This document shows, in pieces, positions 1,005 through 25,167 of a DNA stretch of 25,167 nt. Each line of letters opens with the position of its first letter. The stretch's first letter is position 1. The notes below the pieces were generated by a model. It saw nothing but the letters and a program-made list of their open reading frames with translations. It did no database searches and was not told the origin of the DNA. The stretch comes from Chloroflexota bacterium. GTDB taxonomy: Bacteria; Chloroflexota; Dehalococcoidia; SZUA-161. Both the position numbers and the translations under genes were made by a program. Where the stretch lies: assembly GCA_030668425.1 (NCBI GenBank), contig DAOUTY010000001.1, positions 1 to 25,167 on the forward strand. Direction: 5' to 3'.

Positions 1005-2264
1005 CTATTTAATGGCCTCTACGCCCATAAAAGGGCGCAGCGCTTCGGGGATGGCCACGGTGCCATCGGGCTGCTGGTAGTTCTCCAGGACAGAGATCAG
1101 GACACGGGGCAAAGCCAGTCCGGAGCCGTTCAGGGTGTGGACAAACCGCGGCTTTTCCCCTAACTGAGGTCGGTAGCGGATATTGGCCCTGCGAGCCTGA
1201 AAATCGCTACAATTGCTACAGGAACTCACCTCCAGCCACTCGCCACAGCCGGGCGCCCACATCTCGATATCGTATGATTTGGTAGAGGCAAAACCCAAGT
1301 CGCCGCTGCAAAGCTGGAGCACCCGATAGGGAAGTCCCAGCTTTTGGCAAACCTCCTCGGCATGCCCCACCATCCTCTCCAATTCCTCATCCGAACTATC
1401 GGGCTCGACAAACTTGTAGATCTCCACTTTATCGAATTGATGTCCTCTCTTGATCCCCCTGGTATCCTTGCCCGCCGACATACTCTCGCGACGGAAGCAG
1501 GCGGTGTAGGCGACATAATAAAAAGGCAAGGTGCCCGGCTCCAGGATTTCATCGCGGTGCAGATTGGTCACCGGCACCTCAGCAGTGGGCACCAGCCACA
1601 AATCATCCTCCGCGTCGTGATAGAGGTTGTCGGCGAATTTAGGCAAGTTTCCTGACCCCAACATGCACTCCTGCTTCACCACAAACGGAGGATAGACCTC
1701 GGTATAACCATGCTCACTTATGTGGAGATCGAGCATAAAGGCGATGAGCGCCCTTTGAAGCTTGGCCCCCAGGCCCCTGAGCACATAGAAGCGACTCCCC
1801 GATATCTTCACTCCCCGTTCGAAATCTATGATGCCCAGGTTCGTCCCGATATCCCAGTGGGGCAGGGGGGCATAATCGAATCTACGAGCCTCACCCCAAC
1901 TTCGCACCACAACGTTACCGCTCTCGTCCACGCCGACGGGGACCGTAGGGTGCACAAGGTTAGGCAGTCGGAGCAGGAGGTCGTTCAACTCTTCTTCGTT
2001 GTGGCTAATCTCATAGTCCAGAGACTTGATCTGCTCTCCTATATCCCTCATCTCAGAACGTAATTCCTCGGGCTTGTCCTTCATCTGGCCAATCTCCTTG
2101 CTGGCCTGCTTTCGTCTTGCCCGAAGACTTTCCACCTCCTGGATGAGCCGCCGCCTCTCCTCATCAAGACCGATGATCTCATCGAGGGCAGCAGCTTCGC
2201 CGCGCTTGACCAGCGAATCCCGAACGAGGTCGGGGTTTTGGCGGATGAGTTGAAGGCTGAGCAT
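1005..2264 (-). CDS. serS: seryl-tRNA synthetase
   Basis: N-terminal coiled-coil arm, PTAEVP, motif 2 FRRE...RGHQFDKVE, EVSSCSNC.DFQARR, motif 3 TLNGSGLALPR. Confidence 0.98.
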   Translation of the reverse strand: MLSLQLIRQNPDLVRDSLVKRGEAAALDEIIGLDEERRRLIQEVESLRARRKQASKEIGQMKDKPEELRSEMRDIGEQIKSLDYEISHNEEELNDLLLRLPNLVHPTVPVGVDESGNVVVRSWGEARRFDYAPLPHWDIGTNLGIIDFERGVKISGSRFYVLRGLGAKLQRALIAFMLDLHISEHGYTEVYPPFVVKQECMLGSGNLPKFADNLYHDAEDDLWLVPTAEVPVTNLHRDEILEPGTLPFYYVAYTACFRRESMSAGKDTRGIKRGHQFDKVEIYKFVEPDSSDEELERMVGHAEEVCQKLGLPYRVLQLCSGDLGFASTKSYDIEMWAPGCGEWLEVSSCSNCSDFQARRANIRYRPQLGEKPRFVHTLNGSGLALPRVLISVLENYQQPDGTVAIPEALRPFMGVEAIK

Positions 2265-20535: not shown

Positions 20536-20571
20536 GTAGGGCGATATTTGGAATGCGAGGCAACCTCACTC

Positions 20572-23400
<2,829 letters not shown>

Positions 23401-23447
23401 AAACCGCTGCTTGCATTTCTGGCGTTGATAGTATACTTTAATGTGGA

Positions 23448-23626
23448 GCATGGACCTCGTTACATGGTGTTTTCAAGTGGTGACCTGGGAAATCCGACGC
23501 CGTAGCCACAGCGGGGGTAGCTGACAGCAGCTTTCCCCTTGGAACACGGAAGTCAAAGAAAAGGTCTTGGGCCGCAAACTGCATCAAGGACGGGGACTGC
23601 CTAATTAAGCGGAAAGGAGGTCCAGC
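23448..23626 (+). ncRNA. putative structured cis-regulatory 5' leader RNA of the zinc-ribbon gene
   Basis: Long-range pairing TGGACCTC (23451-23458) with GAGGTCCA (23617-23624, overlapping the SD). Nested helices GACCT/AGGTC and GGGAAA/TTTCCC. Folded by eye; no family recognised. Confidence 0.4.
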
Positions 23627-23627
23627 G

Positions 23628-23921
23628 ATGGCGTTTGAGGACAAGACCTTGGTATGCCGAGACTGCGGAGCAGAGTTCGTGTTCAGCGCTGGGGAACAAG
23701 AGTTCTACCAGTCGCGAGGCTTGGAGAATGAACCTAGCCGTTGTCCAGATTGCCGAGCATCTCGACGACAAGACCGCGGCGGCTCTTCCAGAGGGCCGCG
23801 GGAGAGGACAACCATAACCTGCGATTCGTGCGGGGCCGAGGCCAGCGTGCCTTTTCAACCGCGGAGTGGCCGCCCGGTTTACTGCGACGATTGCTTCGCT
23901 AAGATGCGAAACCAGAGCTAG
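23628..23921 (+). CDS. double zinc-ribbon protein (zf-trcl-like plus CxxC-x17-CxxC domain)
   Basis: DKTLVCRDCGAEFVFSAGEQEFY..RGL.NEP.RCPDCR and CDSCG..A.VPFQP..GRPVYCDDCF. Strong SD AAAGGAGG. Confidence 0.92.
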   Translation: MAFEDKTLVCRDCGAEFVFSAGEQEFYQSRGLENEPSRCPDCRASRRQDRGGSSRGPRERTTITCDSCGAEASVPFQPRSGRPVYCDDCFAKMRNQS

Positions 23922-23953
23922 CAGTACAAGATTAAACCAATAAACGAAACCTT

Positions 23954-23988
23954 GAAACGCTTTGCCCCAGCTTGGGGCAAAGCGTTTC
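23954..23988. terminator. perfect 16-bp inverted repeat after the zinc-ribbon gene (terminator or stabilising hairpin)
   Basis: GAAACGCTTTGCCCCA-gct-TGGGGCAAAGCGTTTC, with no clear U-tract. Confidence 0.6.
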
Positions 23989-24172
23989 GCCTTTGCATCA
24001 AATCGCTCTACTATGGTAGTTCCAACCACTCGTTTGACATCTGCCCCACTGTATGATTAACTGAGACCAAACCCTCAAGGGCAAATACCTGCCAACGAAC
24101 GACGAAAAATGGTGTGCCGGATACCGTTCGTGGCGGGCTCTTTGGCTTTGTGCACAGCAGGCTCTAATATGG

Positions 24173-24333: not shown

Positions 24334-24627
24334 ATGAACATCGGCGCTATGATAGTGAGGCTCCGCCTTCCCGAAAACCATTCCCTCAAGGGTAAAAGAA
24401 AAGTAGTGAAATCGATCACCTCACTGGTAAGTAATAGGTTCAACGTCTCCATCGCTGAGATTGACGACCATGACTTATGGCAGGTGGCTACATTGGGAGT
24501 TAGCTGCGTCAGCAATAATGGCCGGCACGCAAATGAGATTCTGTCCCACGTGATGGACTTCATCGAGGCAAACAGGGGCGATGCCGAGATCTTAGACTAC
24601 GAAATCGAGATCATGCACGCCCTGTGA
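24334..24627 (+). CDS. DUF503 (YlxP-like) protein
   Basis: LRLPENHSLKGKRKVVKSI......FNVSIAEIDDHDLWQVATLGVSCVSN pattern. Confidence 0.9.
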   Translation: MNIGAMIVRLRLPENHSLKGKRKVVKSITSLVSNRFNVSIAEIDDHDLWQVATLGVSCVSNNGRHANEILSHVMDFIEANRGDAEILDYEIEIMHAL

Positions 24628-24643: not shown

Positions 24644-25167
24644 ATGAACACCTCGGACTTTCTTCCCCACCTCAAGAACGTCCCCGCCTACAGGGATCAA
24701 ATCGTTCACATCGAGCACATCCCACCTACGGAAGCAAGTTACGGCGAGTTAGACAAGCCTCTGCACCCCAAGCTTAAGGCTTCCCTCGAGTCAAACCGCC
24801 TGCTCCCGCTTTACAGCCACCAGGCTTCAGCTATTAACATTGTCCAGGCAGACAAGAACGTCGTTGTGGTCACCCCAACAGCCAGCGGCAAGACGCTTTG
24901 CTACAATATCCCCGTCCTCGACGCCATCTTAACTCATGGAGGCAGTCGTGCCCTCTACCTTTTCCCCACCAAGGCCCTGGCTCAGGATCAATTGCGAAGC
25001 TTGAGAGCATTGACCGCCCCGCATCAGATGAAGCTAAACTACGCTACCTTCGATGGCGACACCCCCCAGTGGGAGCGCGCCGAGATAAAGAAATCGGCAG
25101 AGATCGTGCTCTCAAACCCGGATATGGTACACCTGGGCATCCTGCCCAACCACCGTTCGTGGAGGGA
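24644..25167 (+). CDS. DEAD/DEAH-box helicase, MrfA/YprA/Hrq1 (DUF1998-associated) type; 3' truncated
   Basis: Translated by hand: MNTSDFL..., Q-motif LYSHQ, motif I TPTASGKT, motif Ia LFPTKALAQDQ, FDGDTP, NPDM.H.GILPNH. Not in the ORF track because it runs off the edge. Confidence 0.9.
   Translation, partial: MNTSDFLPHLKNVPAYRDQIVHIEHIPPTEASYGELDKPLHPKLKASLESNRLLPLYSHQASAINIVQADKNVVVVTPTASGKTLCYNIPVLDAILTHGGSRALYLFPTKALAQDQLRSLRALTAPHQMKLNYATFDGDTPQWERAEIKKSAEIVLSNPDMVHLGILPNHRSWR

Follow-up and report, generated by a model that had tools for sequence, protein, structure and literature searches.

A conserved leader RNA with two alternative partners for its 5' end upstream of a zinc-ribbon gene in Dehalococcoidia

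The add adenine riboswitch of Vibrio vulnificus is a translational riboswitch platform with competing anti-Shine-Dalgarno (anti-SD) pairings. The 5' untranslated region (UTR) of E. coli cspA is a thermosensor, represented in Rfam by the CspA thermoregulator family. Autoregulatory leaders are known for ribosomal-protein and other RNA-binding-protein genes, and the ompA and aprE-type leaders are 5'-terminal stabiliser stem-loops.

The leader described here precedes a gene for a small zinc-ribbon protein in a Chloroflexota bacterium and shares traits with each of these systems. Like add-type platforms, it has a closing P1 strand with an alternative partner at the SD and two near-isoenergetic predicted folds, the ribosome-open one being favoured first by the order of transcription. 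Unlike them, it has no conserved aptamer core, its apical domain is dispensable in related leaders, the strand in competition is the mRNA's very 5' end, and it matches nothing in Rfam. The cspA UTR is likewise structured and longer than 150 nt, belongs to the gene of a small abundant protein, and has alternative folds that differ in SD/AUG exposure, but no sequence or structure match exists between the two, the zinc-ribbon product is without a cold-shock domain, and no consistent temperature response is predicted. As in ribosomal-protein-type autoregulation, gene-specific conserved structures lie by the SD, in a version particular to each paralog; the zinc-ribbon protein is, however, a putative RNA binder, and no mimicry of a known target was identified. 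As in ompA and aprE-type leaders, a helix is predicted to start a few nucleotides into a highly expressed mRNA, with an open SD region after it, but the closure is long-range (140 nt) and not a local hairpin, and its 5' strand matches the SD in the source clade. The leader is an RNA family new to Rfam and of a familiar kind, namely a structured, SD-competing leader. The reading preferred here, with a probability of about 0.45, is that it is a 5'-terminal clamp and at the same time a bistable switch or timer of translation.

Locus, promoter and transcript

The window analysed is the whole 25,167-nt stretch of contig DAOUTY010000001.1 (assembly GCA_030668425.1, positions 1 to 25,167 of the forward strand). 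The leader is sited in a 227-nt gap between valS (20548-23400) and a 97-aa ORF (23628-23921). The transcription unit is framed by the following features.

23411-23416, + strand: -35 promoter hexamer TTGCAT, matching a TTGCxT/TTGATT that is invariant across 11 orthologs and the paralogous leader groups
23432-23439, + strand: -10 region, either TATACT at 23432-23437 (spacer 15) or TACTTT at 23434-23439 (spacer 17), from the ortholog alignment
23628-23921, + strand: zinc-ribbon protein gene, 97 aa (zf_Tbcl + zf_Tbcl_2 / CxxC-x17-CxxC), assigned by Pfam and TIGR04272
23953-23989, + strand: strong hairpin past the stop codon, a perfect inverted repeat of ~15 bp, 32 nt after the stop

Sequence conservation in the ortholog alignment sets in at the -35 hexamer, with none farther upstream. 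The -10 region aligns with TATAGT or TATACT of the orthologs at spacer 17, and TTGCxT-N17-TATAxT is conserved in every orthologous and paralogous leader. This alignment bears out the promoter-like hexamers, TTGCAT and TATACT/TACTTT, that had been picked out from the single sequence. A simple sigma-70 scan did not find a promoter at the leader. The transcription start site (TSS) of the zinc-ribbon mRNA is predicted at about 23444-23446.

Parts of the locus are contained in 20 runs labelled or guessed as RNA, and the DNA runs with the locus are mostly marine or other sediment metagenomes. Contigs assembled from four metatranscriptomes, which carry no strand information and possibly come from close strains, are confined to 23456-23934. 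Three of them bridge the junction of leader and coding sequence (23456-23672, 23486-23730, and 23552-23874), and none in these four metatranscriptomes lies on valS, upstream of 23456 or beyond 23934. Because the contigs bridge the junction and spare valS, the leader is co-transcribed with the zinc-ribbon gene from its own promoter. The zinc-ribbon mRNA is far more abundant than the valS mRNA; it assembles even from small sediment metatranscriptomes, in which valS is not seen.

On the 3' side follow genes for a DUF503 protein (24334-24627) and for the N-terminus of a DEAD/DEAH-box helicase (ResIII; 24644-25165). RNA contigs are absent over both, so neither gene is co-transcribed to a similar level with the zinc-ribbon gene. 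The hairpin past the stop codon is without a U-tract and was missed by a simple terminator scan, and the RNA contigs stop at 23934. It is probably the 3' end of the transcription unit and may function as a terminator.

An RNA of ~185 nt that is rod-like and abundant could also be a free-standing small RNA, of the 6S type or another, that has a 3' end of its own. This reading is scarcely credible, as no terminator lies between leader and ATG, the three RNA contigs cross the junction into the coding sequence, the element is always fused to the same gene, and neither 6S nor any other Rfam family matches it.

Metatranscriptome word depth peaks at 23665-23715 (84 in one run vs ~3 on either side). 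The peak coincides with a conserved AGEQEFY-coding segment common to many short contigs from other organisms' paralogs, and these contigs suggest high expression of many zf_Tbcl genes in sediments.

Conservation, leader groups and consensus fold

The ~185 nt of untranslated RNA ahead of the zinc-ribbon gene form a genuine leader, conserved and folded. Orthologs of the 97-aa protein in 13 genomes (74-91% amino-acid identity) have the upstream ~185 nt in common (76% mean column identity), and the sequence farther upstream and the neighbour gene differ among them. A covariance model built from the ortholog leaders, R1, finds exactly one copy in the source genome and matches 14 of the 24 genomes of family f1 and all three of its sister family f4 (33-46 bits). 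Each matching genome of the two families has a single copy, immediately 5' of the orthologous zinc-ribbon gene, with the exception of genome G010, which has three matches on two contigs. In a search of 151 genomes across the class, R1 found no full-length copy outside the order; matches there span 50 nt only, comprising the 5' box, the SD and the gene start. The leader appears to be restricted to one order of Dehalococcoidia.

A coding (uORF) reading of the leader was rejected, since ORF starts, lengths and frames differ between orthologs. The variable leader columns have no 3-nt periodicity (44/46/47).

Comparison of the whole window with Rfam 15 (cmscan) gave no match at gathering thresholds, and at E up to 10 only miRNA-like matches, which are spurious and lie on the downstream hairpin 23953-23989. 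The original prediction had proposed this comparison, 6S included, and had found no fit to c-di-GMP, c-di-AMP, ZTP, fluoride or SAM consensus structures. That judgement holds, as no 6S or other family was matched at gathering or permissive thresholds. Its proposal of an undescribed RNA acting in cis on the zinc-ribbon gene is likewise upheld, as regards a conserved and structured leader, by the want of an Rfam family, the location at a single gene, the co-transcription, and the covariation given below. The literature searched yielded nothing on leaders of zf_Tbcl / CxxC-x17-CxxC genes, and the leader adds a candidate RNA family missed by present Rfam models.

Related leaders, including those of paralogous genes, were treated in six groups.

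Group A: family f1, source sequence included
Group A': family f4
Group B: L002-type paralog, ~125 nt
Groups C and D: family f2
Group E: L066

The leader of the source sequence itself is divided as follows.

23447-23460, + strand: 5' box AGCAUGGACCUCGU, the 5' strand common to the exclusive helices P1' and P1, near-invariant in group A
23465-23470, + strand: P2 5' strand UGGUGU, paired with 23581-23586, with covariation
23480-23490, + strand: P3 5' strand GUG.CCUGGGA, consensus pairing with 23565-23575
23491-23564, + strand: variable apical domain (helices 5 and 6) with a conserved hairpin at 23539-23550 (UUGG AACA CGGA) and a GAAGUC motif
23565-23575, + strand: P3 3' strand UCUUGGGCCGC, with UCUUGRG conserved in groups A, A', D and E
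23581-23586, + strand: P2 3' strand GCAUCA, consensus pairing with covariation
23590-23602, + strand: internal SD-like decoy ACGGGGACUGCCU, the P1' 3' strand, from RNAalifold pairs, covariation and cognate duplexes
23603-23614, + strand: A-rich linker from decoy to SD, unpaired in the consensus, variable in sequence and A-rich in all groups
23615-23627, + strand: Shine-Dalgarno AGGAGG and spacer UCCAGCG, of which 23617-23626 is the 3' strand of the SD lock (P1), from complementarity and the minimum free energy (MFE) fold

In the orthologs, RNAalifold joins the 5' box to the internal site, forming P1', and not to the SD. Within P1' it places P2 (23465-23470/23581-23586), P3 (23480-23490/23565-23575) and two apical hairpins. 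Anti-SD pairing had been put forward as the closure of the domain; comparative folding pairs 23447-23460 with 23590-23602 instead.

In a covariance-model alignment of 19 sequences the consensus structure is 92.5% paired, against 32-50% in slid controls, and 18 pairs are changed on both sides, a count reached by 0 of 500 shuffles; this alignment is fitted to the model structure, so that pair counts lean towards that model. Helices 1 and 2, which make up P1', are 91-94% paired with seven pairs changed on both sides. P2 (helix 3) is 93% paired with three such pairs (for example CGGUGU/ACAUCG and UGCUGU/GCAGCA), and corresponds to the TGGTGT/GCATCA helix of the original prediction, which is thus conserved and co-varying. 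P3 is paired in 91.6% of ortholog cells, with C-G changed to U-A in family f4, and in the apical domain helices 5 and 6 reach 90-91% pairing and include pairs changed on both sides.

The source sequence's own fold departs from this consensus. The P3 register has a probability of 0.03 there, and an alternative register from the original prediction is preferred. The GTGGT/GCCGC helix described earlier overlaps P3 and is 84% paired. The two innermost helices, GACCT/AGGTC (23482-23486 with 23562-23566) and GGGAAA/TTTCCC (23487-23492 with 23532-23537), do not survive the comparison, with 61 and 65% of ortholog cells paired, respectively, and the register conserved in their place is that of P3 (23480-23490/23565-23575); despite this poor conservation they are favoured in the source sequence's own MFE. 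Whole-leader folding energy is close to that of dinucleotide shuffles (z = -0.58 over 200 nt, +0.42 over 240 nt), and stability of the whole leader alone is therefore no evidence.

All groups have the same motif order, which is promoter, 5' box, an AUUCA-like joint, GUGCUGUUUUC, GCCGCAAACAGCA, internal site, A-rich linker, and SD. RNAalifold on a MAFFT alignment of all six groups predicts no pairs, because helix registers and bulges differ between the groups. In independent MFE folds of each group, the 5' end closes onto a site 20-35 nt upstream of the SD. This P1' closure is seen in groups A', B, C, D and E despite very different sequences, and examples of the closing helix are CGCUAU..CCUG/CAGGAUAGCG, GCGCUACCC/GGGaUGGCG, UUACCC/GGGUAG, and AUCCAAUUGGAUUC/GAAUCAAAUUGGAU. 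An alignment-free comparison over the six groups gives cognate duplexes of 5' end and internal site a mean of -15.5 kcal/mol, vs -10.8 kcal/mol for cross-group duplexes, and the cognate duplex ranks first or second for most leaders. Since cognate duplexes beat non-cognate ones and the groups were folded independently, P1' is, on comparative grounds, a conserved and co-evolving closing helix of the leader.

The apical domain is wholly absent from groups B and C, which argues against a conserved ligand pocket. This bears on the suggestion that the leader is a small-molecule or metal-ion riboswitch, in which rod and apical domain would form the aptamer and a ligand would stabilise P1' and free the SD. 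A multi-helix domain with a P1-like closing strand that competes with the SD has the classic geometry of an expression platform, and its helices are backed by the covariation given above. A riboswitch, and a metabolite riboswitch in particular, is nevertheless very unlikely. The apical domain is missing from these two homologous, paralogous leader groups and registers vary, which leaves no conserved ligand-binding core; the multi-group alignment has no common consensus fold past the basal rod; the element is tied to one gene family of uncharacterised function and not to a pathway; and no Rfam riboswitch matches.

The SD lock and the proposed switch

In the source sequence, GC-a-TGGACCTC (23448-23458) is complementary to GAGGTCCA-GC (23617-23626), as the original prediction stated, and the complementarity ends one base before the ATG at 23628. 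The resulting helix, the SD lock or P1, consists of 8 bp, a bulge and 2 bp, and is present in the ViennaRNA MFE of 23441-23640, again as described. The duplex of 5' box and SD has an energy of -19.6 kcal/mol, vs a null mean of -12.3 (sd 2.8), and only 0.98% of 510 other GGAGG-type SD regions of the same genome form one as strong as the cognate duplex. It reaches 4-6 bp past the GGAGG core. UC directly after GGAGG occurs in 22 of 526 GGAGG-type genes of the source genome, vs four of its five zinc-ribbon paralogs, and the spacer between SD and AUG is conserved in the orthologs as UCUAGCG/UCCAGCG. The 16S 3' tail was not found in the source MAG.

The lock appears to be kept only in the source clade. 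The duplex of 5' end and SD is stronger in cognate than in non-cognate combinations in group A (-16.0 vs -12.5 kcal/mol), marginally better in group C, and no better in groups A', B, D and E. The anti-SD pairing is thus kept within group A; outside it, the lack of conservation is what the original prediction had named as refuting it. Groups A and A' (with two weak rows of B/D) allow the pairing in 85.6% of cells and show little variation in it; three of its pairs are changed on both sides, and 99 of 500 shuffles do as well. Since the lock is near-invariant in group A, covariation cannot prove it. The sole informative pair is G23453-C23622: L006 shares the G-C of the source sequence, L015 has A-U and L016 has G-U at this place, and in genus g4 the pair is deleted. 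A metagenome pattern scan for further group A variants returned 28 loci, of which five are true leaders, near-identical to known ones, and added no power for separating P1 from P1'. By thermodynamic modelling, the SD lock is real in the source sequence and its close relatives.

The SD and spacer of group A resemble the internal decoy (ACGAGGCCUGGCU vs AGGAGGUCUAGCG), and in L007 and L012 the variants of the internal site and of the SD site resemble each other. L007, a same-genus ortholog, has an altered SD region, with the lock weakened to -8.4 kcal/mol. At this locus (positions 1780-1980, minus strand, genome G001) the SD region reads AAGGGGACUUAGCG in place of AAGGAGGUCCAGCG, copying its own decoy ACGGGGACUGGCU. 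The change could be a concerted one of two partner sites, or an assembly variant.

The predicted energies of the two states lie close together. In group A the mean duplex energies are -16.0 kcal/mol for the SD lock and -17.0 kcal/mol for P1', and the best structures of the source sequence under the two constraints are 1 kcal/mol apart (-62.5 vs -63.5 kcal/mol). Sequential folding assigns P1' a probability of 0.86 in transcripts that end before the SD, and the SD lock one of 0.78-0.98 once the SD is present. In partition-function folding, many group A leaders give a mixed ensemble in which the SD is paired for the most part (unpaired probability 0.00-0.2 in nine of 13 orthologs). P1' is dominant in the remaining groups, where the SD is mostly open; in groups A', B, D and E the SD is unpaired with a probability of 0.25-0.97, mostly above 0.5.

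In the preferred reading, the leader (~23444-23627) folds as a long irregular rod made up of P2, P3 and the apical domain, with the first bases of the transcript at its base. The 5' box has an anti-SD-like CCUC core and would choose between two exclusive partners 16 nt apart. In the P1' state it would sit on the decoy, leaving the real SD open in the A-rich linker; in the P1 state it would cover SD and spacer and block ribosome binding. P1' is the ancestral helix of the two and the one that co-varies, and the SD region of the source clade has grown similar to the decoy, so that the two states lie almost level in energy. During transcription P1' would form first (translation on) and the mRNA would then relax to the SD-locked state (off), unless P1' were held or the SD occupied. 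Either state would bury the 5' end and so provide a 5'-terminal clamp that likely protects the mRNA. In the cell the leader would toggle between P1' and P1, with the balance set by an effector; as a first guess, this would be the gene's own product or the initiating ribosome.

The main rival to the bistable switch is a stabilising 5' UTR whose role is structural only. Its long-range 5' stem would shield the mRNA against 5'-end-dependent decay and display the SD in the open A-rich linker; the match of 5' box and SD would be incidental, following from the SD-like character of the internal partner, and the leader would not switch. In all leader groups P1' begins no more than ~3 nt from the predicted TSS, and in the source sequence the helix lies within ~4 nt of the TSS predicted from the -10 region, with RNA contigs starting at 23456. 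The abundance of the mRNA in small metatranscriptomes without valS agrees with this reading, as do the SD regions of groups A', B, D and E, mostly predicted open and not on the 5' end, and the failure of the lock to be conserved beyond group A. It does not account for the SD being predicted paired in most group A orthologs (9/13), for a 5' box-SD duplex that extends 4-6 bp past GGAGG and falls in the top 1% of SD regions, or for the SD-AUG spacer, which is usually free to drift and is here conserved with a G-C/A-U co-varying pair. A structural UTR alone is rather unlikely, though the most serious of the competing readings.

A specific version of the switch model is an autoregulatory operator, with the zinc-ribbon or another RNA-binding protein bound to the rod or internal site, displacing or stabilising P1' and thereby setting the SD-locked share of the mRNA. 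In its favour are the separate conserved leaders of the individual paralogs in this multi-copy family, the two zinc knuckles and the Arg/Gly-rich linker of the protein, and long stretches of conserved primary sequence that are predicted to be unpaired; that conservation may, however, simply reflect the shallow divergence of the clade, and RNA binding by the protein is putative, with no solved homolog or significant fold match. Such an operator is considered doubtful. The same doubt attaches to a protein- or ribosome-responsive switch that would set decoy SD against SD, with the zinc-ribbon protein as an RNA-binding regulator or chaperone feeding back on its own leader family. If this is true, the switch would govern a zinc-ribbon protein encoded in several copies by nearly all Dehalococcoidia, absent from 14 model organisms and strongly expressed in marine sediments.

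An RNA thermometer, cspA-like or of the melting type, would open the SD at a given temperature. A long SD-occluding leader on the gene of a small, abundant and possibly nucleic-acid-binding protein would suit it, and 18 of 21 relatives yielded no cold-shock-domain gene. In thermodynamic predictions, however, the SD of the source sequence stays paired from 4 to 65 C (unpaired probability 0.00-0.08) and the direction of change differs between orthologs, which speaks against the thermosensor originally suggested. The Rfam thermometer families ROSE, FourU and CspA thermoregulator gave no match, and cold-shock-domain and zf_Tbcl genes are not complementary across the class. A thermometer is highly improbable.

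The proposed competition of decoy SD and SD for the mRNA's own 5' end could be tested in vitro without culturing. The leader with its two competing pairings also offers an experimental handle on zf_Tbcl regulation, and indirectly on function, in an uncultured and abundant lineage.

The zinc-ribbon family and its other leaders

The 97-aa protein matches zf_Tbcl (PF13451; 9.7e-25, 86.7 bits), zf_Tbcl_2 (PF23477; 5.3e-18, 64.9 bits) and TIGR04272 (62.5 bits), all above the family cut-offs. Its four CxxC motifs have cysteines that are invariant in 32 homologs, and form two zinc knuckles with an Arg/Gly-rich linker between them. No sequence homolog was found in the PDB, and Foldseek matches of an AF2 model (pLDDT 83.6) all stayed at E = 0.06 or above. 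Zinc binding is documented for small CxxC-x17-CxxC proteins of Methanosarcina mazei (PMC12704099).

The source genome (1.75-Mb assembly) has five paralogs of the zinc-ribbon gene, and all 41 of 41 related genomes have at least one copy, with a maximum of nine. Within the class, zf_Tbcl genes turned up in 131 of the 151 Dehalococcoidia genomes sampled, mostly as several copies, and were not found in any of 14 model genomes. Cold-shock-domain genes occur in 29 of the 151 sampled genomes, with none in the source genome or in 17 of its 20 closest relatives. The idea that the zinc-ribbon protein replaces cold-shock proteins was rejected: cold-shock domains are rare in the class (29/151), yet they are not complementary to zf_Tbcl genome by genome.

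The closest paralog (69% identity; L002, positions 1774-1901, minus strand), together with L022, L031 and L128, has a 125-nt 'mini' leader devoid of an apical domain. It is closed by CGCUAU..CCUG/CAGGAUAGCG, and its SD is predicted to be open.

Another conserved leader, of ~110 nt, precedes three paralogs of the same genome (L003:1256-1400, minus strand; L004:1370-1500 and L005:1370-1500, both plus strand). Its promoter is near consensus (TTGACA-N16/17-TATTCT or TAGTAT). In this leader CCAUGGAUGA pairs with UCAUCCAUGG over the SD end and the start codon, and a 5' GACCU box is able to pair with CAGGU(U) or with the AGGUC of the SD.

In other phyla, conserved leaders specific to the lineage precede the zf_Tbcl genes of Ktedonobacteria (L088-L133) and Selenomonadaceae (L079-L119). 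The Ktedonobacteria leader pairs CUAGG..GGACCU with AGGUCCCUAG, spanning the SD of a zf_Tbcl gene that starts with TTG, and that of Selenomonadaceae has a co-varying 5' hairpin behind a TTGCTT-N17-TATAAT promoter. The mean predicted SD-unpaired probabilities, computed without shuffled controls, are 0.35 in Ktedonobacteria and 0.19 in Selenomonadaceae.
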